Origin: Spirochaetales bacterium
Lineage (GTDB): Bacteria; Spirochaetota; GWE2-31-10
NCBI GenBank assembly: GCA_022508205.1
Contig: JAFLVQ010000002.1
Coordinates: 1 to 48,907 of the forward strand
Direction of reading: 5' to 3'
DNA: 48,907 bases
Part shown: positions 4,885-41,064 of the stretch, one piece after another
How positions within the stretch are numbered: the stretch's first letter is position 1
Layout: each line of letters begins with the position of its first letter
Position numbers and translations under genes: made by a program
Notes under the pieces: generated by a model
What the model was told of the DNA's origin: nothing
Seen by the model: only the letters and a program-made list of their open reading frames with translations
The model's database searches: none

Positions 4885-7800
4885 TTAATTTGATGAAGGC
4901 GCAACCCAAATTGAAGTGCCGGCATCTTCCCAAATTTTAAAGTAGAAGTCGTACTGTCCGCGGGATGGAACTTTAAAAGGCTGACTGTCCTTTGCTCCTA
5001 CTTTATTATCCTTTTCCCAGTGAAGAATGCCGTTGTTGGGCAGTTTTGCGGGATCGGCATTGGTGTCGATTGTAACTTTATCTCCTTCCTGTAAAAGGAC
5101 ATTTTTAAGATAAAGTTCTTTCTTCAAAGTCGGATATGTTTTATTGTCAATGATTGCACTTACTGAAAATTGGTGTTTATTCACACCATTTACGCATAAG
5201 TAATAGTCGGCAGCTATCAAGCCTGCTGTTCTTGGAATTTCTATCCACTGAGAGTATCCTTTGGTATTATCTTTTTCATTCCAAATCTTATAATACATTT
5301 TGTAAATACCGTCCTCTTCAGCAATATAAGCCGCTTCGCTGACTCTATAGTTTGGATTGTCTTTATTGAATCCGAGTGCACCTTCCCACTGGTCAAGTGC
5401 TTTTTCGTTTTTATCCTTAATTTGTACTTTATCGCCTTTTTTCAACGGATAGCCCATTTGCGTATAACCTGCGGCATTCACAGATTCGATATAGTATTCT
5501 TTGTCTAAAGTCGGCCATGTCGCAGTATCCGGAGTAGGATTCAATGTGAAACTTTTTACTGCCCTGTCGTTGACCCAAAGATTTATATCGCTTCCGCTAA
5601 ATTCAAATGTTACATTGACCTCTACATTAGCTGCCGGCATGTTGAATTGATAAGGATGAGTATCTTTATTGAGTCTTTCGACTTTCATATCAGCATTTTC
5701 TGTTGTGTTTGTAACCTTGATTTGTTCTATGTAGTCATTATTTGACGGTGTTGCAATCAAGTAGACTGTTTCGCCATAAAGTACTTTTGTTCCGCTTGTG
5801 TATGTTGTTCCTGCGGGCGACAATTTTTTTGTTGCCTCACTGTAAGTGTAGCTGCTTGATAATGTGAAACTTCCGTCTGACGGATTAGTAAATGTCAGTG
5901 AGTATGACTTCTTCCGGAATTTTGCGGCAATCTTTACTTCTTCCGACGGCATAGTAACCGTTTCGCCACTGGTTATCGATTTTCCGTTCCATGTGATAGT
6001 TTCTGTTTCATAGCCGTCGTCGGGAGTTGCCAGAACAGTAACTTGTGTGTTTTCTACTACATACGCGTCGCCGCCGAGCCAGCTTTCGCTGCTGCTGGTT
6101 ACTGTTTCGGTGCCTACTCTGACAATTACGGTTCCGCCCGTAACTGTATCGATGTATACGCGTTTTGCATTTGAAATGCTGAATACAACCGTAATAATTA
6201 TATTTTTATCGGGAACGGTGAATGTGTACTCTTTGTTTTTCGTCGCAGCAGTAACTTCTTCGCTGCCGGAGCCATTTGCCCACTTAACTCCCACCTGCCC
6301 AACTTCATAGATTGCATCTCCGACTTTTCCCGGTGTTGTTTCTATTATAACTTCGGTTCCTGCGGCAAAATACATTGTATTTGCGGGTATGATATACGTT
6401 TTTCCCTGATACAATTCTGCGATTCCGGCGTTATTCGGAGTAGTTTCGAGTTTGACTTCAATCTTTTGTCCGAAAGTAGCTTCGATTTCGACATCGCCTT
6501 CAGGCATTGCAAAAGTAATTTCGCTTACTCCGTTGCCTGTATCGGTTCGCTGATTTTCCAAACTTTCTTCCCTGTTTTTGATAACAATCGCGCCCAAAGC
6601 TGTTTCGCCGTTGCCGGCCGCTTTTAATGTAACTTCTTCGCCTGCTTTGGCACTTTTTGCGGATGTTATTGTGCCGCCTTTCGAGTCTTTTATTGTAATC
6701 AGATATCCTCGGAAAACGGCAGATACGGTAACGCTGTTTTCCGGCATTACGAAAGTGTATTCATTATCGCTGTTTTTTGTTACAGCAACAGCCGCTTGAG
6801 TGGTGCCGTTTTCGGTAACGGTTATGCTGTCTATTGCGACATAACCTTCATCCGGCTTGCCTGTAACTGTAATTGTTGTTCCTTTATATGCTTTTGCATG
6901 ACTGAATTTCAGCTCTCCGTTGATGACAGCTCCCTGTAATATTTCGTAGCCTGCTTTTGCGGAAAATAATACTTCCAAAGTGGAATCGACGTCCTCCATT
7001 TCAAATGTTATTTTTTCCGATGATTCCAATGTTTCGCCGTTGAGCTTTATGTACGTAATTTCATTGCCGTCTGCCGGTGTAATTTTTGCGGTAACTTCGG
7101 TTTCGGGCTGCAAATACGTTTCCAGCGGTATAGATTCGCCGTTTACGGATAATTCAACGTTTCCGTCTCCCGATATTTTGACGGATAATTTTTTTGCTCC
7201 GAATTTTGTTACACTTACGGTAAGTATTACTTGTGATGCCGGCATAGTAAACGAAAAGTCTCCGATGTTTGCGTTTTCGATTGTTACTTCGACATTTTGC
7301 TGTACGCCGTATTCATCTGTATACGATACTTTCGGTATTTCCGGCAAAATGTAGTCCGAATCCGGTTTTGCCGATACTTTGATTACTTCGCCTGCGGGGA
7401 TTCTTTCCGACTTCCAATCAAGCGTTGTTCCGTCATTATGCGACAACGTAACTGTCACGTGATCTTTTTCGCCCACTGTGTTAAGCGTAATGGAGTACTT
7501 GGAAACTTCGTTTTTGCGTTTGAATGTAGCATTTATTGTAATAGGGTAGCTCGGCATGTCAAATGTTTTGTTTCCAAGTGAGATATTACGGATAATTTCG
7601 TTGCCGCTCTTTTCAATGTATGTGTACCATAAATTTTCCAATTCATATTCATCGCTTGCGGGGGTAGCTGTCACTGTTACGGGAGATTTTGCAACTGCTC
7701 TGTCAACGCCGCATGTTACAGTTCCGTTTTCGATATTGTCGTCGATTGTGATTTTATATCCGATTTGGATTGGCAGTACGGTTTCTTTTTTTATTCCGTC

Positions 7801-8127
7801 GTCAGTGTACGAAATTGTAATTTTTGTGTTGTTCTCGGTGAGTCTTGCAGATGGAGAATACGTATATTCGCCGCTCTTCAGTTCTTTTGCGGAACCGTTG
7901 GAATAATTCGCTTTTACGACCATTCCGTCGGGATTGAATGTTTCTCCGGCAATATAGAGCGTTTTTGTCGGGTTGGAAGTTACATCTATACTTGCGAGTG
8001 TAACTTTTTCACTTTTCGGAGTTTCTTCCGCCTTGCAAGAGTTGTCGCAGGATAAAATTACTACCCCCCCCCATATCAGAAAAAACATAATCGAAAAAAT
8101 TTTAACTTTATTTATTATATTGCCCAT
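4885..8127 (-). CDS. Large surface lipoprotein with an N-terminal Ig-like domain, about 10 divergent B-repeat-like modules and two tandem C-terminal putative glycan-binding modules
   Basis: The ORF track extends this gene to 8178. GGAGG followed by 5 nt and then ATG at 8127 gives MGNIINKVKIFSIMFFLIWGGVVILSC, a signal peptide with a lipobox Cys. It carries repeated ~80-aa modules of the pattern G..V......G..VT..A.P..GY. The corrected length is 1080 aa. Confidence 0.8.
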   Translation of the reverse strand: MGNIINKVKIFSIMFFLIWGGVVILSCDNSCKAEETPKSEKVTLASIDVTSNPTKTLYIAGETFNPDGMVVKANYSNGSAKELKSGEYTYSPSARLTENNTKITISYTDDGIKKETVLPIQIGYKITIDDNIENGTVTCGVDRAVAKSPVTVTATPASDEYELENLWYTYIEKSGNEIIRNISLGNKTFDMPSYPITINATFKRKNEVSKYSITLNTVGEKDHVTVTLSHNDGTTLDWKSERIPAGEVIKVSAKPDSDYILPEIPKVSYTDEYGVQQNVEVTIENANIGDFSFTMPASQVILTVSVTKFGAKKLSVKISGDGNVELSVNGESIPLETYLQPETEVTAKITPADGNEITYIKLNGETLESSEKITFEMEDVDSTLEVLFSAKAGYEILQGAVINGELKFSHAKAYKGTTITVTGKPDEGYVAIDSITVTENGTTQAAVAVTKNSDNEYTFVMPENSVTVSAVFRGYLITIKDSKGGTITSAKSAKAGEEVTLKAAGNGETALGAIVIKNREESLENQRTDTGNGVSEITFAMPEGDVEIEATFGQKIEVKLETTPNNAGIAELYQGKTYIIPANTMYFAAGTEVIIETTPGKVGDAIYEVGQVGVKWANGSGSEEVTAATKNKEYTFTVPDKNIIITVVFSISNAKRVYIDTVTGGTVIVRVGTETVTSSSESWLGGDAYVVENTQVTVLATPDDGYETETITWNGKSITSGETVTMPSEEVKIAAKFRKKSYSLTFTNPSDGSFTLSSSYTYSEATKKLSPAGTTYTSGTKVLYGETVYLIATPSNNDYIEQIKVTNTTENADMKVERLNKDTHPYQFNMPAANVEVNVTFEFSGSDINLWVNDRAVKSFTLNPTPDTATWPTLDKEYYIESVNAAGYTQMGYPLKKGDKVQIKDKNEKALDQWEGALGFNKDNPNYRVSEAAYIAEEDGIYKMYYKIWNEKDNTKGYSQWIEIPRTAGLIAADYYLCVNGVNKHQFSVSAIIDNKTYPTLKKELYLKNVLLQEGDKVTIDTNADPAKLPNNGILHWEKDNKVGAKDSQPFKVPSRGQYDFYFKIWEDAGTSIWVAPSSN
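8064..8072 (-). repeat. Homopolymeric G9 tract (C9 on the + strand) inside the signal-peptide coding region, in frame
   Basis: The coding strand reads ...CTG ATA TGG GGG GGG GTA GTA..., encoding L-I-W-G-G-V-V. The position was checked against the ORF-track frame. Confidence 0.95.
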
Positions 8128-8333
8128 GACAGCCTCCGCAGTGTATATTTTGAAAGAGTAAAGCAAAATTTGTTCCACGAGGATAACGGCTTGCGGTGTG
8201 TCAAAATAGCTTTCATTGCGGTATTAATGCGTACAACGAAAATTTTCTTTTGTGCAAACGCTTTAATAGTCTGGTAATAAATGTTCGTAAATGTTATACA
8301 GGCACGATACTAAAATAATCAGGAAGTGTACGA

Positions 8334-10557: not shown

Positions 10558-13500
10558 TTAATCTTTCAAAATAAACATTGCGGACAAAGCCGGAACGCTG
10601 ACAGTTGCCGATGTTTTTGTTTTGGTCATTAAATCTGTTCCGGAGCTGCCCACATTGTAGCTTATCGATGAATTGGAATAATTTACAAGGTAGACGATAG
10701 TCTGCTCGCTTGTGGATTTTTGCGCTGCGAAAAATGTACTGCTTGACGACTGCAAGCTGCTGTATGTTCCGTTCCATAAAGCTTCATTTTCGTCTCTCAT
10801 AGTCATCAGCTTAGCTACGTAATCATGCAAATCTTGTTCATCGGCAGTGAAACCCGAAATTTTGCCTGAAGTCCTGGCGGCATTATCCGAGCTTGATGAT
10901 ATATCGCTTTTGTCTCCGTATTCATCACCGTAATAAACAGTGATAGGTCCGGTGTAAGCTGCCAATGTCGAAAGCGCAACCTTATGGCGTTTCCAGTAAT
11001 CATTGCTGCCGTATTTCCAAGTGACCAAATCTCCGAAACGAACCAAATCGTGGTTTGTGATGAATAAGTTCGGCAGATAACCGCTTGCTCTTTCGTCGTT
11101 ACTTGGGTGATAGTACCCTTTGGCCGAAGCACTTTTCATTACGTAATCGAGATTTGAAAGCGACAGTCCGGATTTTTCTTTGGATTCTTCCATTGCAAAC
11201 ATTTGAACAAGTTTATAGCGGCTTGGAAAATCAAAGCATGAACGAAGTCCGTATCCTGCTGCGCTTCCCTTTTCTACGGAGAATTTTTGAATTATCGGCG
11301 GATTGGAATCGTCACCGTTCCAATGTTCGCCTACCATATAACCCAAACTTCCCCAGTCGGTTCCCGGCGTTCCGTTGGCATTGGCTGCTTTTTCTACGGC
11401 ATCGCGAATTTCATACCAGTAATTATGACCGTTTGTATAGCTGTCGTCACCTAAGCTGCTATTGCCCAAACCTACTTGATAGCATTGATCCAGCCGCCAG
11501 CCGTCGATTTTGTAATTTTTAATCCAGTATGTTGCCACTTCTTTGAAGAATTCGAGTGTGCAGTCATTTTTTCCGGGATAATCGCACGCGCGGTATTGAC
11601 CGTTGCTTCTTTGCGGAGTAATTCCGTTCGGCGAAGCTTTGCAGCCTAAATCGCTCCAATGCCCGAAAACTCCGTCAAGGATTATATACATATTTCGGTT
11701 GTGACATTCTTCTACAAGTTTTCTGAAATCATCCGACGTTCCGAAATGCGGATCGATACTGAAATAATCATAAGCATAGTAGCCCGTAGCCGCAAGCTGA
11801 GTATTTGCGTTTGTATCGAATATCGGTGTCAGCCACAGGGCGTTCATTCCCAAACCTTTTATGTAATCCAATGCATTGATGATTCCCTTAATATCGCCGT
11901 TGTGCTTACTCGGCCCGTACCCTTGAAAGAATCCCAATGAAGCATCTCCGCTTTGAAAACTTTCCACCATTACTTGATAAATTCTCAATTCGTTGAATTT
12001 TCCCGTAAGTTTCGGGTTGGCAATCTTCAGGTTTGCCGTTGCCGAGTTATTGCTGCCCAAACGGTTTTCTGCGTTGGCAGATATTGTTATAAAGGCACCT
12101 TCGGTCGTTGTGAAGTCCGATACTCTGAATTCATTTTTGCCGCGTCGCAGATTGTAAGATTTTCCGTTGATTCTTGCCGCTGCACTTGTGAGTACGGTGT
12201 CACTTTCGATTGTAATCGAAAATGTTTTTGATGATGCGATACTGCCGTTTTGAGGGGAAATCGTAATTGTCAGAGCTGTCGATGTTGGATTGGGACACTG
12301 AAATGATTTTTCCGAAATTTCCGACGGCGTGAAATTTTTCCCAAAGGCTTTTGCTTTTACGATGATGTCTTTGCGGTTGTAATCTATCGAAAACGGAGCA
12401 ACATATTTTAAAGTAGATTCGTTTGGGTCGCTGTCATCGATTGTATAATAAATAGTTGCGCTGCCGTTGCCGCACGTAAGCGTAACAGTCGAATTGGTTT
12501 CGTCGATTTGTACCGTCGGCAATTTCTCTTTTTCTGTCTGCTGCAATGTAAATGTTTCGCTTACAATATCGGAGACTGCCGAACCGCGATAAGCAATTGC
12601 TTTTACGGTTGTGGTATTGTAAATAGTGAATGGTTCCGTATATTTTGTACTTTCCCGTGTCGGATTTTCGAGATTTGTCGTGTAGTAAATATCGCTGTCG
12701 TTTTCGCATGTGATTGTAATTTTTTGCTCCGAGCTGAAAGTGCAGCTTTTCGGTGAGATTACGGGCGCATTGGTTTTGCTGCTGCTTACGGAGAACTGCA
12801 CAGTTAGGATTTCCGAATTTTCGAGGTTATCGGCAATTCCCAGTGCTTTTACGGTTACGAAAGAATCTTTTTCGGTAAGTGTAAATCCCGAAGTGTATAA
12901 AGTTGATGATGAAGATGGCTGCGAGCCGTCTGTTGTATAGTAAATTCGCACATTTTCGGTTTCGCATGATATTGATATTTCGTCATTCGGAGAAATTATA
13001 CTGCCTGCGGAAAAATTGAATGATAACGGAGTGACTTTTGTCTGTTCGGGCGTGAGGGTTCTTTCGGCATTTTTTTCGGAAACAAAAACAGTTGCCGAAT
13101 CTTTGAAATACACCGTTTCGGTTTTATCCATGAAGTAAAAAGAGAAATGGTAATTTCCTTCTTCCGCTATTTGATCGAAAATAATCGGTTCGCCTTTTAT
13201 ATAGGCTAAGTAATATTCTCTACTGGTTTCGGCAATGTTGATTTTTACCTTCGTTATGATTGAAGGAAGCGCAATTTTTTCATCAATTGTAAATATTGCA
13301 GCTGCTTTTATCGGCTCTATTTGAAGTACTATTTCGTCTGCGCCCGATACGGACATTTCCTTTTCGGCTTTTCCTATAATCTTGCCGTTAGTATCATAAG
13401 CAAATGCGTAAAAAATATAATTGCCGGCATCGACGGTGAATGTATAAATTGTACTTACCGCTTCACGTGAAGTAACTTCCGTTCCGTCAATATTTTTTAT

Positions 13501-13662
13501 TCCGACTTTATATTTTTTTACGGTTATCTCGGGAGCTGGCTCTATGCTAACGGTAATTGATGTGCGCTTTTTTGCTGTTGTCGGCTTTTCGGTTACGGTA
13601 CACGATATTATCCCGATTAGTAACAAACAGAATAATAAAAAGTTTTGCAGATATTTTGCCAT
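10558..13662 (-). CDS. GH13 alpha-amylase-family lipoprotein with N-terminal Ig-like region and three CHB_HEX_C-like modules
   Basis: GH13 regions are visible: GMNALWLTPIF, ILDGVFGHW (region I), GWRLDQ (II), GEHW (III) and FITNHD (IV). Three tandem modules read ..I.C.....IYYT.D.S.P......Y...F. The start was chosen at ATG 13662 (MAKYLQNFLLFCLLLIGIISC, lipobox) behind GGAG. ATG 13674 is an alternative, and the ORF track extends to 13707. Confidence 0.85.
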   Translation of the reverse strand: MAKYLQNFLLFCLLLIGIISCTVTEKPTTAKKRTSITVSIEPAPEITVKKYKVGIKNIDGTEVTSREAVSTIYTFTVDAGNYIFYAFAYDTNGKIIGKAEKEMSVSGADEIVLQIEPIKAAAIFTIDEKIALPSIITKVKINIAETSREYYLAYIKGEPIIFDQIAEEGNYHFSFYFMDKTETVYFKDSATVFVSEKNAERTLTPEQTKVTPLSFNFSAGSIISPNDEISISCETENVRIYYTTDGSQPSSSSTLYTSGFTLTEKDSFVTVKALGIADNLENSEILTVQFSVSSSKTNAPVISPKSCTFSSEQKITITCENDSDIYYTTNLENPTRESTKYTEPFTIYNTTTVKAIAYRGSAVSDIVSETFTLQQTEKEKLPTVQIDETNSTVTLTCGNGSATIYYTIDDSDPNESTLKYVAPFSIDYNRKDIIVKAKAFGKNFTPSEISEKSFQCPNPTSTALTITISPQNGSIASSKTFSITIESDTVLTSAAARINGKSYNLRRGKNEFRVSDFTTTEGAFITISANAENRLGSNNSATANLKIANPKLTGKFNELRIYQVMVESFQSGDASLGFFQGYGPSKHNGDIKGIINALDYIKGLGMNALWLTPIFDTNANTQLAATGYYAYDYFSIDPHFGTSDDFRKLVEECHNRNMYIILDGVFGHWSDLGCKASPNGITPQRSNGQYRACDYPGKNDCTLEFFKEVATYWIKNYKIDGWRLDQCYQVGLGNSSLGDDSYTNGHNYWYEIRDAVEKAANANGTPGTDWGSLGYMVGEHWNGDDSNPPIIQKFSVEKGSAAGYGLRSCFDFPSRYKLVQMFAMEESKEKSGLSLSNLDYVMKSASAKGYYHPSNDERASGYLPNLFITNHDLVRFGDLVTWKYGSNDYWKRHKVALSTLAAYTGPITVYYGDEYGDKSDISSSSDNAARTSGKISGFTADEQDLHDYVAKLMTMRDENEALWNGTYSSLQSSSSTFFAAQKSTSEQTIVYLVNYSNSSISYNVGSSGTDLMTKTKTSATVSVPALSAMFILKD

Positions 13663-13728
13663 TCTTTGCTCCATCTTATTTTTATTTGTGAAATAAATAT
13701 GGAGCAAGTACAGTACCGCCGAAATATT

Positions 13729-15395: not shown

Positions 15396-18038
15396 TTATT
15401 TGTTTTTTTTGGCTTTCTTTTGTAAATCATAAAGCAAAGTCAACGCTTGAATTGGAGTTACTCTGTCCAAATCAAGAAATTTTACGGCATTGCAGATCTC
15501 TTTCGATGCGTTATCTTCCTTATAATTTTCATGAAAATCGAACAAATTGTCTTGATATGCTTCTGTTTCGCGGCTGCCTTGCATTGTGTTTTTGTTGTTA
15601 TCATTTTGTTCAAGTTTTTCCAATAAGGTTTTTGCGTATATTACGATTGAATCCGGCATTCCGGCAAGTTCCGCAACATGTATCCCGTAGCTTTTTTGTG
15701 CTGCTTCGGGAATTATTTTGTGCAGAAAAGTAAAACTTGTGCCGTCTTCTTTAATCGCTACCGAGTAATTTTTGATTCCTTCCTTTTTATCAAGCTGTGT
15801 CAATTCGTGGTAATGTGTGGCAAATAATGTTTTTGCACCTAAAATGCGTTTGTCGTGGATGTAGTCGAGAATTGCCCATGCAATAGCCAAACCGTCGTAT
15901 GTACTTGTTCCGCGCCCGATTTCATCCATAATTATAAGACTTCGCCCAGTAGCATACTTTAAAATATTGGCGGTTTCCTGCATTTCCACAAAGAAAGTAG
16001 ATTGTCCGCGCGCCAAGTTGTCGGATGTTCCTATGCGGGTAAAAATTCTGTCTACGACTCCGATGGTTGCCGATGTCGCCGGAACAAAGCAGCCAATCTG
16101 CGCCATTAAAATAATCAGTGCGTTTTGTCGTAAATACGTAGATTTTCCTGCCATATTCGGTCCGGTGATTATCATTAAATAATTATCTTCGGTAATTTTC
16201 GTATCATTCGGAATAAAATCATTGTAATCCATTTTTGTTTCCACTACGGGGTGACGTCCGCCGATGATTTCCAAATCAAAGCAGTCGGTTATGTTTGGTC
16301 GCACATATTCTCGTTCCCGAGAATTTTTTGCGAATGCCAGCAGTACATCGAGTTTGGAAATCACTTCCGCGTTTTCCTGAATTTGAACAAGCGATTTCAA
16401 CAGAATTTCCTTTGTTTCGATAAAAATAGTTTGTTCGATTTCATTGATTCGCTCCCGCGCGGTAAGAACTTTCGATTCATATTCAGACAATTCTTTATTG
16501 GTATAACGGCAGGAATTGACCAAAGACTGACGCAGGATAAAGTCGCCGTTGAGATTTTTTGACTGTATTTTCGATATTTCAAAGAAATAGCCCAAAATTT
16601 TATTGTATTTGATGCGCAGACTCGGAACATCGAAATTTGCCCGAATTTCGGATTCTATTTTGCCGATGTATTCTTTGCTCTTTGAAGACAGCTGTTTCAG
16701 TTCGTCCAATTCTTTTGAAAAACCGTCTTTTACAATATTTCCTTCGTCAATGAATGTAGCCGGATCGTCTTTTATTCGTTCCTCCAGCAGTGCTACTGTT
16801 TCTGGCATTGCTGCGAATGTGGATAATAATTCTTTCATTTGCGTGATGTTTCCAAGCAGTTTGATAATTTTGCCGCATTCCTGCAATGAAATTTTTATGC
16901 TGATCAAATCTTTCGGAGTTGCTTTGTCCATAACCAGCCGACCGGCAAGCCGTTCCAAGTCCGCAATATTTTTTATGGAATTTTCAAGATTTGCCGCCAA
17001 ACCCGAAGTTTTTATAAAAACATCTACAATATCGAGCCTTTTTTCTATTTCTTTCGGACGGAGCAGCGGTTCCACAATCCATTTTTTTAACAATCTGCCT
17101 CCCATTGCGGTCAATGTGCAATCCATTATTTCAAACAGCGAATTGGTTGTGGTTCCGTCGTTTTGATTGCGCAGAAGCTCCAAGTGCTTGATGGTAGATT
17201 CGTCGAGCCGCATTACACTGTCACTGTTGCGGTAATGCGGCGGGCGGATATGAGATAAAAAGCCTTGAAAATTATTTTGCAAGTATTTCAATAATGCTCC
17301 GGGTACTGTCAAATCGGTCTTGAGTTCGGGCATTCCGAGCTGGCGCAGACTTTGGGCATTGAACTGCGCTAATACTATTTTCTGATTTTCTTCCGGCTGA
17401 AATTGTTCGTCACCAAAGCGGTTAATCAGAATCCCTTCTGTTTCCGAGAAAATTTCTTCTAATATCGGATAACGGCAAAGCAGTGATTCAGGGACTATTA
17501 TTTCTTTTGGCAGCAGGCGGCACATTTCTCCCCGCAATACGGAAAAGCCTGATGTTATATCCAACTCTGCCATTTCAAATTCACCGGTGGAAATGTCGAT
17601 GTATGCAATTTCAAGCCACGTGCCTTTGGTATTCAATCCAAACAGATAATTGTTGCTTTTGTTTGTCAGCTGATCTTCTTTAACTATTGTGCCGGGAGTA
17701 ATTATTTCGGTAATGCCGCGCTTTACCAGTCCTTTGGCCAGTTTCGGATTTTCAAGCTGTTCGCAGATTGCTACCTTTTTGCCGAAAGAGACAAGTTTCT
17801 TTATATAAAAATCGGCAGCGTGATATGGAACTCCGCACATCGGAATTTCATTTTGCCGTTTGGTCAGTGTGATATTGAGAAGTCTTGCTGCTTCAACGGC
17901 GTCGTTGTCGAACATCTCGTAAAAATCTCCGCAGCGGAAAAACAAGAATGCATCCGGATATTTGATTTTTAATTCTTTATGCTGCTTCATCATCGGTGTA
18001 TCGTATGATGCTTTATCGATTTCTTTTTTTTCTGACAT
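15396..18038 (-). CDS. mutS: DNA mismatch repair protein MutS
   Basis: This is an 880-aa ORF. It has the N-terminal mismatch-binding segment TPMMKQHKELKIKYPDAFLFFRCGDFYEMF, a Walker A motif GPNMAGKST, and the motifs DEIGRGTSTYDG and THYHEL. Confidence 0.97.
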   Translation of the reverse strand: MSEKKEIDKASYDTPMMKQHKELKIKYPDAFLFFRCGDFYEMFDNDAVEAARLLNITLTKRQNEIPMCGVPYHAADFYIKKLVSFGKKVAICEQLENPKLAKGLVKRGITEIITPGTIVKEDQLTNKSNNYLFGLNTKGTWLEIAYIDISTGEFEMAELDITSGFSVLRGEMCRLLPKEIIVPESLLCRYPILEEIFSETEGILINRFGDEQFQPEENQKIVLAQFNAQSLRQLGMPELKTDLTVPGALLKYLQNNFQGFLSHIRPPHYRNSDSVMRLDESTIKHLELLRNQNDGTTTNSLFEIMDCTLTAMGGRLLKKWIVEPLLRPKEIEKRLDIVDVFIKTSGLAANLENSIKNIADLERLAGRLVMDKATPKDLISIKISLQECGKIIKLLGNITQMKELLSTFAAMPETVALLEERIKDDPATFIDEGNIVKDGFSKELDELKQLSSKSKEYIGKIESEIRANFDVPSLRIKYNKILGYFFEISKIQSKNLNGDFILRQSLVNSCRYTNKELSEYESKVLTARERINEIEQTIFIETKEILLKSLVQIQENAEVISKLDVLLAFAKNSREREYVRPNITDCFDLEIIGGRHPVVETKMDYNDFIPNDTKITEDNYLMIITGPNMAGKSTYLRQNALIILMAQIGCFVPATSATIGVVDRIFTRIGTSDNLARGQSTFFVEMQETANILKYATGRSLIIMDEIGRGTSTYDGLAIAWAILDYIHDKRILGAKTLFATHYHELTQLDKKEGIKNYSVAIKEDGTSFTFLHKIIPEAAQKSYGIHVAELAGMPDSIVIYAKTLLEKLEQNDNNKNTMQGSRETEAYQDNLFDFHENYKEDNASKEICNAVKFLDLDRVTPIQALTLLYDLQKKAKKNK

Positions 18039-36002: not shown

Positions 36003-38147
36003 TTATTGAGCAGCTTCGATTAACAATGTGCCATTGTTTTTATCTGTAATCGTAAATGTTGCTTTGCCGTTTGTAACATCAGCAGGTTCACCGGTGTAGA
36101 AATCTTTTACTTTTGCAGCTCCGATTGATGAAACATCGACTGTCACTTCACCCTCAGCTGCGCCAAGAACGACAACAACTTTATCGTTACCTTTTTCACG
36201 GCTGAACGCATAGCCTGCGCTAAGGTCAATCTTTTTGTGTACACCCGCTCCGACGGCAGTGTGATTTTTTCGGAAGTTCAGCACTTTTGACCAGTGAGCG
36301 TGAATGTTTTCGTCGAATGTGTAGTTTAGAGCAGCATTGTAACCAGCTTCTACGCTTTTCCACGGCATTTGCGAACGATTTTTCTGATCATCATCACCCT
36401 TAAATGATGCGTCGCTGTCTTTTCGTCCGGCTTCATCACCGTAGTAAACTTGAATTGCTCCCGGACACATCGCAAGCAATGAACCTGCAATCATTTGTTT
36501 TTCCGCACTCTTTGAATAAGCGGAATAAAATAAACCGTTGCTGTCTTGAGCTCCCGTATCGTGAGAACTGATGTAGCTTAAAACGTTGAAAGCTGGGTCT
36601 GAATTGATATTTTCGGCATAACTCGAATAAGTAGTATCTATATCGGAGATAGTAGTTAACGCGTTTTTTGCTACCGAACGGAACGAGAAGTTAATCATCG
36701 AATCAAATCCGCCTTCGGTGTAATACGCATCTTTTGTCACGCCGTGTAGCCAGTGCTCGCCTGTCATCCAGAAATCGCTGTCATCGACCTTTTTGTCGGA
36801 ATTTTTGTTTTTCCAGTCTCGCAGTGCCTGTGTACATGCAACTTTTAGCTGATACCACGCTTCTTTTTCCACATGTTTTGCCGTATCACAGCGGAACCCG
36901 TCGATACCGAACTCGCGCACCCAGCTGCTGAGCCAGTAAATCAGATAATCTCTTACACGGTAATTTGAATTCTCTTCCAGCTCGACAACATTATATCCTT
37001 CGGTAGGATAAAACTTTGCCATTTCCGCTGTAGCTGTATGCTTTTTTGTAAGGAATACAGGCAGTTTAACGGCAAAATTGTTTTCCGTAATGAAATCAGG
37101 CAAAGCACCGCCACTCGAACCTGTTAAATCTCCGCTACCTGTGTGATAGTGGCTGCATAACCCTGCGCGAATCCAGTCGCCGCCCCACCAGTCGTCCCAG
37201 CCGTTAGACTTTTCAGTGGAATAATCAATATAGTCATGATAATTCTTGATTGTGATTTCTGCAGTATCATTAAAATTATCTTTGAGTACTCCCGGATACA
37301 AATGCACAGCATCTTCGATAGTGTTGTAACCCGGATGGTTCATAACTACATCCATTACAATGCGAATTCTTTTCTCATGTGCTTTGTTGACAAAAGTGCG
37401 AAACTCCTCAACGGTTCCCATACTTGCGTCCATATTTGTGTAATCCATTGCATAGTAACCGTGATACGGATAATGGAAGAATTCACTGTTGCCGCCGATA
37501 CAGAAACCATGAATCTGCTCATACGGTGCGGTAATCCAGATTGCGTTGATACCCAATTCTTCCAAGTAATCAAGTTTTGCGGTAAGCCCTGCAATGTCTC
37601 CGCCGTAAAATTTTCCGGCATCATCCTCTTTTGTAGGATCTCCTTTTTCACGACCGTAAGACTCGTCATTGTTTTCATCGCCATTGTAAAAACGGTCGGT
37701 GATTACAAAATACACGCTGGCATTGTCCCAGAACTCGTTATTTAACTTATAATCCGAAGGGAGTAAGGTTTCCCAACTATTTGCAGCAGCGCGTTTCTCT
37801 TTTACCGTTACTTCGCAAGTTGCCGATTTTCCGCCTGCTTCGGCAGTAATTGTTGCAGTACCGACTCCTCTACCGGTAACTACTCCATCGTTGCTTACGG
37901 TTGCGACATTTTCATCGCTTGATGTCCAAGTAACCTCTGCATTTTCCGCATCTTTCGGCGATACTGTCGCTTTCAATGTTTCGGATGAAGAAACTGCAAT
38001 TATTACGGAAGTTGGTGACAATCTTATACTTGTGACTGCTTTTTTTGGTGTTTCGCTGGATTCTTTGGAACCAGAATCGGGTTCTGAGCAGCCGAACATG
38101 AACAAGATTACAGTTGCTAATGTTAAAAATACTTTAAACTGTTTCAA
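36003..38147 (-). CDS. GH13 alpha-amylase lipoprotein (MalS-like) with N-terminal Big_2 Ig-like domain
   Basis: This is a 714-aa ORF. The start is TTG at 38147, 7 nt after AAGGAG, and the lipobox is ...LFMFGC. The Big_2 pattern is VTSIRLSP....I.......L.ATV.P.DA....VTWTSSDENVATVS.DGVVTG...GTATITA. GH13 regions are VMDVVMNHPGY, GIDGFRCDTAKHV, GEHW and YISSHD. Confidence 0.9.
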   Translation of the reverse strand: MKQFKVFLTLATVILFMFGCSEPDSGSKESSETPKKAVTSIRLSPTSVIIAVSSSETLKATVSPKDAENAEVTWTSSDENVATVSNDGVVTGRGVGTATITAEAGGKSATCEVTVKEKRAAANSWETLLPSDYKLNNEFWDNASVYFVITDRFYNGDENNDESYGREKGDPTKEDDAGKFYGGDIAGLTAKLDYLEELGINAIWITAPYEQIHGFCIGGNSEFFHYPYHGYYAMDYTNMDASMGTVEEFRTFVNKAHEKRIRIVMDVVMNHPGYNTIEDAVHLYPGVLKDNFNDTAEITIKNYHDYIDYSTEKSNGWDDWWGGDWIRAGLCSHYHTGSGDLTGSSGGALPDFITENNFAVKLPVFLTKKHTATAEMAKFYPTEGYNVVELEENSNYRVRDYLIYWLSSWVREFGIDGFRCDTAKHVEKEAWYQLKVACTQALRDWKNKNSDKKVDDSDFWMTGEHWLHGVTKDAYYTEGGFDSMINFSFRSVAKNALTTISDIDTTYSSYAENINSDPAFNVLSYISSHDTGAQDSNGLFYSAYSKSAEKQMIAGSLLAMCPGAIQVYYGDEAGRKDSDASFKGDDDQKNRSQMPWKSVEAGYNAALNYTFDENIHAHWSKVLNFRKNHTAVGAGVHKKIDLSAGYAFSREKGNDKVVVVLGAAEGEVTVDVSSIGAAKVKDFYTGEPADVTNGKATFTITDKNNGTLLIEAAQ

Positions 38148-38246: not shown

Positions 38247-41009
38247 CTAACTCTTCTTCTTTAAGATAACAAAACTTTTTTTCTCAACTGCTGTCGGAGC
38301 AGAATCAATCTCTTCAGTCTTTCCCTCTGTTACGTTAATAGCTTTGTAGCCGTCACTATCTGGGATTTTAAAGGCCTCATTTGATGAGTTGAAATAAACC
38401 ACAAAGTCTTCTGTAGTATATTTGATTACGCTGCCGTCATTATTAGCTTTTTCTGCTGTTGCTTTTGTATTGCTGCCGAAAGCCTCACGATTTTCTTTAC
38501 GCAGTTTAATCAAGCCTTTGTAAACGTTATATACGTCTTTGTAGTATTCTTTGAATTTCAAATCAATTTGATTGATTTCATCATCTGAGGCGTAGCTGTT
38601 TTCGTCACCTTGTTTTGTTCTCATAAATTCTTGTCCGCCGTTGATAAACGGAGTTCCCTGTGCGAGGAATACAAGTGCGGCGGCAAGTTTGTTTTGTGCA
38701 CGAAGTTCATTTTGTTGATTTTCGGTAAACTTATCATACGCTTTCCATCCGTCTTTATCTTTTCCGTCGTTTAACGAAATCGCCAGTTTATCCGCAAGAG
38801 TGTAGTTATCGTGACATTCCACATAGTTTATGGAACGGCCCGGATGCTTTGTCAATGACGGAGACCCTTTCAGTCCTTCGATTACCGCAGCAACCAAATC
38901 TTTTTTGTCACCATCTTCATAAGTACCTTGTACGAATCCTTTTTGGAAACCGCCGAATTCGGCACCTTTGATTGCGTTTCTGATGTCGTCGTTAAACATC
39001 GCAACACCTTCCATGGCGTCGACTGTTTTTTTGCTGTCCGATGTTATTCCGTTTTCAACGGGCGAGCTACCGCCTGTCCAAGGTTCGCCGTAAACCATTA
39101 CATGTTTATCGATTTTCTTTAATTCCGCGTAAATTTCTTTCATTGTTTCTTTTTCATGCAGCCCCATGAGGTCGAAACGGAAGCCGTTGATGTGGTAATC
39201 GTTCATCCAGTGTTTCAAGCTGTCGATCATGTATTTTTTAAACATTACCCGATTGGAAGCAGTTTCGTTGCCGCAGCCCGAACCGTTGGAGTAAGTTCCG
39301 TTTGTCAAACGATAGTAATAATAAGGAACAGTCATATCGAACAACGAACCTATACCTGTTCCGTTGGTGTGGTTGTAAACTACGTCCATGTTTACGGCAA
39401 TTCCGGCCTCGTGGAATGCTTGTATCATTGTACGCATCTGACATACAGCGTTGCGTCCGTCAACATCAGGTTTATTTACATAACGGCCTTCCGGTACATT
39501 GTATTGGTATGGGTTATATCCCCAGTTATATTTACCATCGTCATTCTTTTCCGCATAGTCGAACATCGGCAGAATTTGAACGTGTGTAACGCCCAAATCT
39601 TTTAAATGTGCAGCAAATTTGTCGGGGTCGGAGCTTTTAAGTGCACTTGTAATTTCATCGAATTTACCGGTACTGTTTGGTACAAAAGCGCGGCTCCAGT
39701 CACGAATGTGCATTTCGTAAATAACAGCATCGGTATACTCGCCTTCAAATGGGTTTGTATATTCGATTTCCCAGCCTGCTGGCTGTGCGGTTGTATCCGT
39801 AGCTAAATCCACTATTTGTCCGGCAACACTGTCCGGTGCTGCGGAATGTGCGTAAATATCGCAAATCCTGTTTGTGCTACCGCCGTTTGTGATTTCATAA
39901 GTATAATATTTGCCTTTCAAATCTTCCTTAATTTCGACAGACCATACACCGGTTTCTTCATTTAAAGTCATTTTAGTGCGCTTGCCTTTGTTTGCTGTCT
40001 CTGTTTTTGCGGCTTCTTCTTCTGTAAGGATAAAATTATGTTCTTTGCCGTCTTCTTTTGCTCCGTTCCAGTCATCGTAAATAAGCACACTTACTTCGCT
40101 TGCAAGAGGTGCCCAAACTTTGAAAGTTGTACTTGCAGAAGTATAAATAGCTCCGAGAGTTTCGTTTGCGGCTTCCTTTTCGGCTGCTTTAGTACTGAGA
40201 ACTTCATTCATGCCGATTTCCTTTCCGTCATCGGGGATGAACTTTGCATGAGAAATTTTATATGTTTTTTCCAAATCCAAATCCTCTCCAATCTCTACCC
40301 AAAAATTGGAAGTGAAGTTGTAATTTTTCAGATATCTTTCATCGTCTGATTTTCTGTAGGTATAATTTCTCATGTTTGTTATTTTTACTTCGGTTCCGTC
40401 AGTTGCCCGTATTGTAAAACCGTTATTCGACGGAGATGCACTGATTGCATACTTGCAGGAAAGGGTCAGCTGCATTTCCAATGGGCTGATCATTACCGCA
40501 CCTACAATCTGTGGCTTTGCATTCGGATCTACTGCATAAACATTTGAATTCCCGCTTATTGCGGCAAAATGTTTTCCCCATGAAAGATTCCAAGACCGAT
40601 CCAGATCCGGATCTTTATCTGCCCAATTGCCTTTTCTTATGATAAAGTTGATCTTCCCGTTGTCACTTTCAGCAGCATTTTTCACGTCGTTGTTAGGACT
40701 GTTTTCACTGAATTTAAGATATGCGACTTTTTTTCCGTCAACATCAATAAAGTCTGTAAAATCTCCTTGAGCACCCTCTCCGGCGTCAACCCAAAGCCAC
40801 ACATTCCAATCGGTATAATTTCCGTCGGGTCTGTAATAGTACAGCACTGCTTCGTCATTTGCGCCTAATTTCTCTTTGGCGGCAATAACGATTTTTATTG
40901 CTTCGGGTGTTTCTTCAATTGTTCCGGGAGCGACTTTTTCGCCATTGCTTCCGCCCCCCCCCACTGTTGTCTTTTTTGCTGCTGCTACTGCTGCTCGGTT
41001 CGCAGCCAA
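38247..41009 (-). CDS. Type I pullulanase (GH13 with CBM41- and CBM48-like N-terminal modules), enzyme-encoding frame; the authentic start is in another frame (see 40915..41064)
   Basis: This is a 920-aa frame with YYRPDGNYTDWNVWLW (CBM41-like) and TFKVWAPLASEVSVLIYDDW (CBM48-like). It also has YNWGYNPYQYNVPEGRY, MDVVYNHT, INGFRFDLMG, YGEPW and YVECHDN. The ORF-track M is an in-frame TTG with no SD and no signal peptide. Confidence 0.9.
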   Translation of the reverse strand: MAANRAAVAAAKKTTVGGGGSNGEKVAPGTIEETPEAIKIVIAAKEKLGANDEAVLYYYRPDGNYTDWNVWLWVDAGEGAQGDFTDFIDVDGKKVAYLKFSENSPNNDVKNAAESDNGKINFIIRKGNWADKDPDLDRSWNLSWGKHFAAISGNSNVYAVDPNAKPQIVGAVMISPLEMQLTLSCKYAISASPSNNGFTIRATDGTEVKITNMRNYTYRKSDDERYLKNYNFTSNFWVEIGEDLDLEKTYKISHAKFIPDDGKEIGMNEVLSTKAAEKEAANETLGAIYTSASTTFKVWAPLASEVSVLIYDDWNGAKEDGKEHNFILTEEEAAKTETANKGKRTKMTLNEETGVWSVEIKEDLKGKYYTYEITNGGSTNRICDIYAHSAAPDSVAGQIVDLATDTTAQPAGWEIEYTNPFEGEYTDAVIYEMHIRDWSRAFVPNSTGKFDEITSALKSSDPDKFAAHLKDLGVTHVQILPMFDYAEKNDDGKYNWGYNPYQYNVPEGRYVNKPDVDGRNAVCQMRTMIQAFHEAGIAVNMDVVYNHTNGTGIGSLFDMTVPYYYYRLTNGTYSNGSGCGNETASNRVMFKKYMIDSLKHWMNDYHINGFRFDLMGLHEKETMKEIYAELKKIDKHVMVYGEPWTGGSSPVENGITSDSKKTVDAMEGVAMFNDDIRNAIKGAEFGGFQKGFVQGTYEDGDKKDLVAAVIEGLKGSPSLTKHPGRSINYVECHDNYTLADKLAISLNDGKDKDGWKAYDKFTENQQNELRAQNKLAAALVFLAQGTPFINGGQEFMRTKQGDENSYASDDEINQIDLKFKEYYKDVYNVYKGLIKLRKENREAFGSNTKATAEKANNDGSVIKYTTEDFVVYFNSSNEAFKIPDSDGYKAINVTEGKTEEIDSAPTAVEKKSFVILKKKS

Positions 41010-41064
41010 TCAAAAATAAAATAGATGCGATTAACGCAATAATTGAATTAATTATTCGTTTCAT
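40915..41064 (-). CDS. Lipoprotein signal-peptide leader of the pullulanase, out of frame with the enzyme body at the G9 tract (49-codon ORF as sequenced)
   Basis: Read by hand. GGAGG (41074..41070), 5 nt, then ATG at 41064 gives MKRIINSIIALIASILFLIGCEPSSSSSSKKDNSGGGRKQWRKSRSRNN*. The lipobox is L-I-G-C. The Ser-rich linker continues sensibly only if the frame shifts at the G-run. Confidence 0.75.
   Translation of the reverse strand: MKRIINSIIALIASILFLIGCEPSSSSSSKKDNSGGGRKQWRKSRSRNN
40954..40962 (-). repeat. Homopolymeric G9 tract (C9 on the + strand) at the frame junction of the pullulanase gene
   Basis: The coding strand reads ...AAC AGT GGGGGGGGG CGG AAG... The position was verified against the ORF-track frame (V16-G17-G18-G19-G20 of the 920-aa frame). 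Confidence 0.95.

Follow-up and report, generated by a model that had tools for sequence, protein, structure and literature searches.

A run of nine G residues in the gene for a predicted 1080-aa surface lipoprotein of an uncultured herbivore-gut spirochete is in all likelihood a slipped-strand contingency locus, placed in the signal-peptide coding region of a probable starch-binding protein. The tract occupies positions 8064 to 8072 on the minus strand (C9 on the plus strand) of the window, the whole 48,907-nucleotide stretch of DNA analyzed here, and stands in the ON register of the proposed slipped-strand switch.

The gene (4885 to 8127, minus strand) translates as a 1080-aa open frame with the N-terminus MGNIINKVKIFSIMFFLIWGGVVILSCDNSC. 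Its product contains several InlB B-repeat-like (Flg_new_2) domains besides a Big_3 domain (aa 52-108), and two SusE-like modules make up its C-terminus. A GGAGG ribosome-binding site (8133 to 8137, minus strand) precedes the ATG at 8127 by 5 nt and supports this start over the GTG at 8178 listed by the ORF finder. By pattern match, M1 to C27 form a lipoprotein signal peptide (MGNIINKVKIFSIMFFLIWGGVVILSC; 8047 to 8127, minus strand) in which K7 and K9 give a basic n-region, followed by a hydrophobic core and the lipobox I-L-S-C. The segment MGNIINKVKIFSIMFFLIWGGVVILS-C27 fits the regular expression for a signal peptidase II lipobox, and the motif is kept in about 40 orthologs, where this region reads VLSC or ILSC. 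The protein would accordingly be displayed at the cell surface. NCBIfam holds no name for it, nor for a 472-aa lipoprotein described below.

Within the coding sequence the tract covers nt 56-64, in frame, at codons 19 to 22: the last two bases of W19, all of G20 and G21, and the first base of V22. Computed translation of the G7 to G12 alleles gives full read-through for G9 and G12 only. The G8 allele stops after 21 aa, G11 after 22 aa, and G7 and G10 after 38-39 aa. Run counting and translation thus bear out the first-pass annotation, which had described nine in-frame G residues on the coding strand of the signal peptide and had proposed that any one-base change in length would truncate the protein (21 aa with G8, 38-39 aa with G10). 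Two hallmarks of slipped-strand contingency loci are found here: a slippable repeat of about 8 or more G/C in the 5′ part of an ORF (G9 at nt 56-64), and a length that shifts the gene in and out of frame and leaves the rest of the ORF untouched.

An exhaustive count of G/C runs in the window returned one C6, two C9 and none of 7 or 8. The two C9 runs, at 8064 to 8072 and at 40954 to 40962, are the only G/C runs of 7 or more. By analytic estimate, an independent-base model predicts 0.035 runs of at least 9 (P for two or more = 6e-4), and extrapolation of the window's own run-length decay predicts 0.013 (P = 9e-5). These figures agree with the earlier impression, formed by eye, that no other G/C run exceeds 6 and that two runs of nine (0.013-0.035 expected) go beyond chance. 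About 101 kb of sequence drawn from six relatives without the tract contains zero G/C runs of 7 or more. GGG is the rarest glycine codon (11.6% in the 19 genes checked), and the tract holds the sole GGG-GGG pair in those genes. The tract at 8064 to 8072 is non-random.

To compare tract lengths we used ENA and Logan contigs found via protein look-ups, reading each length from the consensus contigs of metagenome assemblies. An exact-flank DNA search with a variable tract gap found nothing in the GTDB genome collection or the JGI metagenome contigs, and the species is absent from both. All eight assemblies recovered for the window's own species carry G9 here; they represent several strains about 97% identical in protein. 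The orthologous tract of a sister lineage varies: among eight contigs it is G8 in one (L005), G9 in one (L011) and G10 in six (L007-L010, L012, L013). These contigs come from eight different sequencing runs, whose closely numbered accessions (SRR334542xx-SRR33454311) may belong to one study. Outside the tract, the G9 contig L011 matches the G10 contig L012 at every position over 3,731 bp. The G10 length occurs on three haplotypes separated by 7-18 substitutions, and G8 on a fourth. All seven sister OFF alleles regain an intact 1078-codon frame once the tract is reset to G9.

The tract sits at the identical codon in these two lineages, which are only 67% identical in protein and differ in the bases directly 3′ of it (TAGTA vs CACTG). 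At this site the more distant orthologs, which have no tract, read FLAGF or FLASF. Length differences between close genomes, a further hallmark of contingency loci, are therefore seen at the orthologous tract of the sister lineage and at the pullulanase tract within the same species, with 8064 to 8072 itself invariant. The comparison between strains that the first-pass annotation had proposed came out divided in the same way, with G8, G9 and G10 in the sister lineage and G8 and G9 in pullulanase on one side and uniform G9 at 8064 to 8072 on the other. All eight same-species assemblies carry G9, so that switching at 8064 to 8072 in this organism is a matter of inference.

The second G9 tract (40954 to 40962, minus strand) lies at nt 103-111, codons 35-37, of a gene for a type I pullulanase lipoprotein (38247 to 41064, minus strand; PUD, CBM48 and GH13 domains; signal peptide MKRIINSIIALIASILFLIGC). 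Here the G9 is out of frame and the gene is frameshifted (OFF) in this contig. The computed product of the G9 allele is 49 aa, and G8 or G11 would restore a protein of 938/939 aa. The tract is G8 (ON) in contigs L014/L017, L015 and L020 of the same species (samples SRR16767936, SRR16767934, SRR27406862), and G9 (OFF) in the window and in L019. Contigs L016 and L019 are 100% identical over 9.5 kb, so the G9 pullulanase alleles may be non-independent observations. Two samples have both the 1080-aa gene and pullulanase ON, and the window has the former ON and the latter OFF. With pullulanase OFF here and ON in three other samples of the species, the two genes, 33 kb apart, occur in different ON/OFF combinations. 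The earlier reading of independently switchable components, ON for the 1080-aa gene and OFF for pullulanase, is upheld as far as the mixed combinations and the OFF state of pullulanase go; on the side of the 1080-aa gene it meets only G9, in eight of eight assemblies. The supposed same relative position of the two tracts did not hold: 8064 to 8072 precedes Cys27 and is part of the signal peptide, and the pullulanase tract follows the lipobox Cys21, in a Ser/Gly-rich tether of the mature protein.

Our poly-G survey of this genome covers about 64 kb. Beyond the window, the same contig carries a third tract, a G10 (L016, 18983-18992) that precedes the ATG of the 472-aa lipoprotein gene by 36 nt. 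By eye, a tentative promoter (TTGCCG-17 nt-TATAAG) can be read there; a promoter scan around this G10 called none, since the last base of the −10 element is G. A fourth tract, present in other strains, is G9 or G12 inside a cytoplasmic BcGHD/DUF2264 gene. It changes only by multiples of three, so not every poly-G run in the species is an ON/OFF switch of a lipoprotein.

Several features point to a role of the 1080-aa protein in alpha-glucan use. Its C-terminus is predicted to fold into two tandem beta-sandwich modules of about 115 aa each (aa 843-1080; 4888 to 5601, minus strand) with invariant aromatic residues, as seen with AlphaFold and Foldseek. The AlphaFold models have pLDDT values of 88.6 and 92.4. 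Foldseek against the PDB placed the starch-binding domains of B. thetaiotaomicron SusE (4fch_A and 4fem_A) as clearly separated best matches, with probabilities of 0.99-1.00 and TM scores of 0.53-0.56 for a single module, at E-values of only 1.6e-3 to 2e-2. When the C-terminal 238 aa were compared by sequence with the PDB, the only hits were to McrA, at a chance-level E of 0.04, and they were rejected. There is thus moderate evidence that the modules fold like SusE starch-binding domains, and they probably bind starch.

The gene lies among DUF6675, PepSY-like and GH13 genes. A tract-free gene for a 1038-aa GH13 alpha-amylase-family lipoprotein (10558 to 13674, minus strand) is its syntenic neighbor in every lineage examined. 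The SusE-like modules and this synteny together give moderate support to an alpha-glucan link. A 523-aa gene between the amylase gene and mutS was considered as a further component and rejected, as it has no signal peptide. No homologues of TonB-dependent transporters, SusC or SusD were found among the 20 large ORFs scanned in the window, so the 1080-aa protein may work like SusE/F without belonging to a Bacteroidota PUL. Like SusE and SusF (PDB 4fch, 4fem), it would be an N-terminally lipidated surface protein with Ig-like spacers followed by tandem C-terminal starch-binding beta-sandwich modules, as predicted here, and it is encoded near GH13 enzymes. It differs from them in being about three times larger, with InlB-B-repeat/Big_3 spacers, in having undetectable sequence similarity, and in a fold similarity that is moderate (TM ~0.55). 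Of the idea that both tract-bearing genes serve one alpha-glucan apparatus, the link of the 1080-aa protein to alpha-glucan finds support in the modules and the GH13 synteny. Unity of the apparatus is a looser suggestion, because the four alpha-glucan lipoprotein genes are scattered over 36 kb; two of them, the amylase gene and a second GH13 lipoprotein gene (36003-38147), are free of tracts.

We propose that during replication the nascent or template strand slips in the homopolymer, so that the tract gains or loses a G; slipped-strand mispairing would be the cause of the length differences. With G9 (or G12) the ribosome would read from M1 through W19-G-G-V to C27, and the protein would be exported, lipidated and displayed. 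With G8, G10 or G11 translation would stop after 21-39 residues and no protein would be made. The change would be reversible because the remainder of the 3.2-kb frame is intact, and in this organism switching at 8064 to 8072 may be both frequent and reversible. The same device would operate independently in the pullulanase gene and probably in one or more other lipoprotein genes of the genome. Cells of one population would then differ in their combination of starch-capture and debranching surface proteins, a diversity that may carry a selective benefit. The genome has an intact mutS (15396-18038) and hence mismatch repair, which would moderate slippage, not abolish it.

The tract could instead be a mutational hot spot with no adaptive switching, a fragile Gly-Gly run that is a stable part of the signal peptide in the window's species and whose G8 and G10 versions in the sister lineage are accidents on the way to pseudogenes. 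Such an account is improbable in our judgment. In its favor, G9 is read in all eight assemblies of the window's species, seven of the eight sister contigs are OFF, as expected for a dispensable gene, and the sister haplotypes differ by 4-10 nonsynonymous vs 3-6 synonymous changes, with nonsynonymous changes not rarer among these few substitutions. Against it, every OFF allele lacks a second frameshift or stop in 3.2 kb. G9 and G10 also occur on an otherwise identical 3.7-kb sequence, so that the change in length must be very recent. Although the tract uses the rarest glycine codon twice in succession, it has kept its codon position in two lineages whose proteins are 33% diverged. Finally, a second and probably a third tract lie at the 5′ ends of lipoprotein genes within about 64 kb, against none in about 101 kb of relatives.

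Errors of sequencing or assembly, by which the length differences between contigs would be mistakes and the pullulanase frameshift a miscalled base, are a very remote explanation. Homopolymers are the most error-prone context, the data are metagenome assemblies throughout, and two contigs break at or beside a tract (L034 begins 7 nt past it, and L024 terminates within a G12). The lengths are nevertheless reproducible over independent assemblies (G9 eight times, sister G10 six times, pullulanase G8 three times), and an identical wrong length in six samples is unlikely to arise from random error. A tract of 8-10 nt is also shorter than the assembly k-mers, so each contig gives the majority allele. 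We give scarcely more credence to control at the level of RNA or translation, where RNA polymerase slippage or ribosomal frameshifting would yield mixed products, tune dosage and allow partial expression of OFF DNA alleles. Transcriptional slippage does occur at long homopolymers, which are generally known as sites for it. In the G8 allele an ATG directly before the tract (ATATGGGG) is in frame with the gene body; the gene caller chose this ATG for protein P0002 (N-terminus MGGALILSC). A product begun there could not be exported, since it would retain little of the hydrophobic core and none of the basic n-region. Differences in DNA length are directly observed and are enough for ON/OFF control, and no frameshift-stimulating structure or slippery heptamer was noted at the site.

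The slipped-strand switch proposed here very probably belongs to a known kind, the poly-G contingency loci of Neisseria pilC and Treponema pallidum; the novelty lies in the context, a herbivore-gut spirochete and its capture and debranching of starch. The poly-G tracts in the signal-peptide region of pilC switch at 1e-2 to 1e-4 (PMC2193922, PMC5354566), and later papers credit the description of poly-G phase variation of pilC in N. gonorrhoeae and N. meningitidis to Jonsson et al. 1991 (PMC2193922, PMC5354566, PMC5953494). Both pilC and the 1080-aa gene encode surface proteins and carry a G tract of 9 or more in the part that codes for the signal peptide, and in both a one-base frameshift makes a translational ON/OFF switch with the rest of the ORF intact, here as read from the sequence. 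They differ in host (a pathogenic beta-proteobacterium against an uncultured herbivore-gut spirochete), in product (a pilus tip adhesin against a predicted SusE-like glycan-binding lipoprotein) and in that switching rates were measured for pilC, whereas the present alleles are known from contig sequences alone.

In T. pallidum, expression of tprL, tprE/G/J and tp0126 is gated by poly-G tracts whose length varies within isolates (PMC7864442). Both organisms are spirochetes in which poly-G tracts of about 7-12 are tied to envelope protein genes, and in T. pallidum length varies within and between isolates. Its characterized tracts, however, lie in promoters and act on transcription, whereas 8064 to 8072 lies inside the ORF, downstream of the ribosome-binding site and ATG, and would act via the reading frame. 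The G10 upstream of the 472-aa lipoprotein gene resembles the promoter type. The targets in T. pallidum are a pathogen's putative porins and antigens, not carbohydrate-harvesting proteins.

The poly-G phasomes of Campylobacter and Helicobacter (PMC6321876, PMC2823697) offer a further parallel, as those genomes too are low in GC with few G/C runs of 8 or more. In both cases the runs are concentrated in surface-structure genes and generate combinatorial ON/OFF states. To our knowledge, Campylobacter and Helicobacter are without classical MutS/MutL mismatch repair, in contrast to the genome studied here with its intact mutS. Phase variation of Bacteroides utilization loci proceeds, as far as we know, by invertible promoters and not by simple-sequence repeats, and our literature search gave no counter-example. 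Nor did the literature searched contain any account of phase variation by simple-sequence repeats in starch-utilization genes or in Treponema of the rumen or gut. Poly-G slippage is textbook phase variation in mucosal pathogens; it is hardly documented in commensal gut bacteria or in carbohydrate-harvesting proteins.

Gene callers mis-annotate poly-G genes of this kind: they reported the OFF alleles in our dataset as proteins of 1010, 1060 and 920 aa, truncated at the N-terminus. If the proposed switching is real, glycoside hydrolases recorded as frameshifted in metagenome-assembled genomes are not necessarily pseudogenes. Starch capture and debranching would then be heterogeneous within a clonal population of common uncultured herbivore-gut spirochetes, with a bearing on sharing and cheating in extracellular polysaccharide breakdown and on the surface proteins targeted by phages or host antibodies. 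More speculatively, these spirochetes may maintain a small poly-G phasome on their surface lipoproteins (one or more others besides the starch-binding protein and the pullulanase), by which each cell would stochastically show a subset of the starch-harvesting machinery. Such a phasome would be a case of nutrient-acquisition phase variation by simple-sequence repeats in a commensal. It might be driven by producer/cheater dynamics of extracellular debranching, or by phages or IgA acting against exposed glycan-binding proteins, and not by the immune evasion of a pathogen.

The gene for the 1080-aa lipoprotein is encoded on the minus strand from an ATG at 8127 to a stop at 4885, with a GGAGG read 5 nt upstream of the ATG. 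Translation gives a lipoprotein signal peptide, MGNIINKVKIFSIMFFLIWGGVVILS-C27, and confirms the proposal of the first-pass annotation that a second G9 tract lies in frame within it. The tract (8064-8072, C9 on the plus strand; direct sequence read and run count) runs from the second base of the W19 codon through all of G20 and G21 to the first base of V22. Computed changes in tract length bear out the expectation that gain or loss of one base truncates the protein: the frame stops after 21 aa with G8, 39 aa with G10 and 22 aa with G11, and is kept with one extra Gly with G12.

An exhaustive count of G/C runs of at least 6 in the window revealed one C6 and the two C9 at 8064-8072 and 40954-40962, and nothing else, as had been noted. 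Two runs of at least 9 compare with 0.035 expected under an independent-base model and 0.013 when the decay of run lengths within the window is extrapolated (P of two or more = 6e-4 to 9e-5 across the two models), consistent with the earlier view that they are not expected by chance. GGG is the rarest Gly codon (11.6%), and among 19 genes a GGG-GGG pair occurs in the tract only. In a survey of about 64 kb of the window's genome, all long G runs (3/3) are located at lipoprotein gene 5′ ends, and six related genomes that do not have these tracts showed no G/C run of at least 7 over about 101 kb of sequence.

Most of the ~40 full-length orthologs of the 1080-aa protein read ...MLFLAGFIVLSC or ...FLASFLILSC at the tract site, with no G run. 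The tract is present at the same codon in two lineages, the window's species and a sister species (67% protein identity; CACTG after the tract versus TAGTA in the window's species). In the window's species, where the proteins are ~97% identical across assemblies, the tract is G9 in 8/8 assemblies (ERZ27293312, ERZ27293317, SRR27406862, SRR16767931, SRR16767936, SRR10504711, SRR27406842, SRR13619847), none of which carries an OFF length; a ninth contig of this species, L034, starts 7 nt past the tract. Two short contigs (L034 at position 1, L024 at its end) have their break at a poly-G tract or no more than 7 nt from it, perhaps because tract lengths were mixed or the homopolymer was poorly covered in those samples.

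Length does vary in the sister species, where eight runs, probably from one study, comprise G8 (n = 1, L005), G9 (n = 1, L011) and G10 (n = 6, L007-L010, L012, L013). The gene calls track the tract state: 1078 aa when ON, 1060 aa from MGGALILSC with G8, and 1010 aa from Met69 with G10. Across 3,731 bp compared between L011 (G9) and L012 (G10), the tract is the sole difference. G10 is found on three haplotypes, 7-18 substitutions apart, and G8 on a fourth, and therefore at least two length changes have occurred among sequences less than 0.6% diverged. All OFF alleles recover an uninterrupted 1078-codon frame once the tract is reset to G9. A 60%-identical ortholog on contig L006 (9925-10010) has a signal-peptide region without a G tract; an in-frame TAG at codon 7 is followed there by an (AT)6 run, which may mark another type of disruption or a switch based on the dinucleotide repeat.

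The pullulanase lipoprotein gene (38247-41064, minus strand; PUD, CBM48 and GH13 domains) carries the other G9 tract at 40954-40962, on the same strand. The two tracts had been placed at the same relative position, which holds only approximately: this one occupies nt 103-111 of the gene, past C21 of the N-terminus MKRIINSIIALIASILFLIG-C21 and in the Ser-rich tether that follows it, versus codons 19-22 before C27 in the 1080-aa gene. By computation the frame ends after 49 aa with G9 and G8 brings back a 938-aa protein; the window's allele is thus out of frame, the gene caller giving 920 aa from an internal TTG, and the annotated states (1080-aa gene ON, pullulanase OFF) are correct. G8, which gives this protein in frame (935-956 aa), was found in three other same-species samples (protein P0124; contigs L014/L017, L015 and L020). 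G9 is found in the window and in L019, which is 100% identical to the window's contig over 9.5 kb, so that the two may represent the same strain or sample. In SRR27406862 and SRR16767936 both genes are ON, in the window only the 1080-aa gene, and these combinations fit independent switches. In L015 (10095-10146), a 21-codon duplication of the pullulanase tether adds a further, shorter run, G6, on the upstream side of the G8 tract (KKDNSGGSESNDEKDNSGGGGSNGE).

A third tract, G10, lies on the window's contig ~8 kb past the window's right end (L016 18983-18992, would-be window 56863-56872), 36 nt before the start codon (ATG) of the gene for a 472-aa lipoprotein with the N-terminus MKRLVKCVILFAFALAFVS-C and no known domains. 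By eye it occupies the 17-nt spacer between TTGCCG and TATAAG, an arrangement that the promoter scan does not call. A fourth, seen only in other strains (G9 at L015 1693-1701; G12 at L018 2968-2979 and L024 1931-1942), falls in codons 66-69 of the GC-rich gene for a cytoplasmic BcGHD/DUF2264 protein just past the right end of the window; it is in frame, its lengths differ by multiples of three, and the allele on the window's contig has a different sequence without the tract. The sense strand carries poly-G, not poly-C, in 4/4 long tracts (window 8064-8072 and 40954-40962, L016 18983-18992, L015 1693-1701).

The G9 tract is best explained as a classical contingency locus, in which replication slippage within the G run would change its length by one and so switch translation of the lipoprotein OFF or ON. 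The closest precedent is Neisseria pilC, whose poly-G tract likewise lies in the signal-peptide region (PMC2193922, PMC5354566, PMC5953494). Among spirochetes, variable poly-G tracts, mostly promoter-located, gate outer-membrane protein genes in T. pallidum (PMC7864442). Length invariance in the window's species would also suit a mutational hot spot that has no adaptive role and whose OFF alleles are decaying, but we consider this unlikely given the otherwise identical G9/G10 pair, the repeated occurrence of tracts where lipoprotein genes begin and the intact OFF frames, which are a prediction of reversible switching and contrary to that of decay.

An assembly artefact is the least probable reading, as the lengths are reproducible between independent assemblies. 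Slippage or frameshifting at the RNA level is scarcely more credible and is unnecessary because the length differences are already present in the DNA. The earlier interpretation as a switchable locus is largely right in substance: comparison between strains shows variation in the sister ortholog (G8/G9/G10) and the pullulanase (G8/G9), and from these we infer that the tract at 8064-8072, invariant in its own species, probably switches there as well.

In the 1080-aa protein, Pfam detects Big_3 at aa 52-108 together with several Flg_new_2 domains that resemble InlB B-repeats; NCBIfam yielded no match. Its C-terminal 238 residues make up a pair of related modules in which many aromatic residues are invariant; AlphaFold predicts them with high confidence (pLDDT 88.6 for the pair, 92.4 for the last module). 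A Foldseek search of the PDB matched B. thetaiotaomicron SusE (4fch_A, 4fem_A; probability 0.99-1.00, single-module TM 0.53-0.56, E 1.6e-3 to 2e-2), well apart from all other matches, in structures whose ligand is maltoheptaose or alpha-cyclodextrin; AmyP, through its starch-binding domain CBM69 (5x5s), ranks lower. The neighbourhood is constant in all lineages examined (mutS, a 523-aa gene, a GH13 amylase lipoprotein, PepSY-like, DUF6675). Also in the window are genes for another GH13 amylase lipoprotein, adjoining the pullulanase gene, and for a solute-binding lipoprotein. The fold match and GH13 neighbourhood therefore predict, with moderate confidence, a SusE/SusF-like starch-binding surface lipoprotein. 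Its gene does not belong to a Bacteroidota Sus locus, since the 20 large ORFs scanned in the window include no SusC/SusD genes.

The window (39% GC) comes from a metagenome contig of 92 kb (ENA ERZ27293312, k141_789251) with genes for FlaA flagellar sheath proteins, a PilZN3 protein and DUF6675. The source organism is a spirochete; the public genomes closest to it are MAGs of uncultured 'Spirochaetales/Spirochaetota bacterium' (MutS identity up to 90%), recovered from ruminant gut, water-deer caecum and faeces. An intact five-domain mutS (15396-18038, minus strand) lies three genes from the 1080-aa gene, and poly-G instability would therefore operate in the presence of mismatch repair. The system is of a known kind; its functional and ecological setting is unusual.
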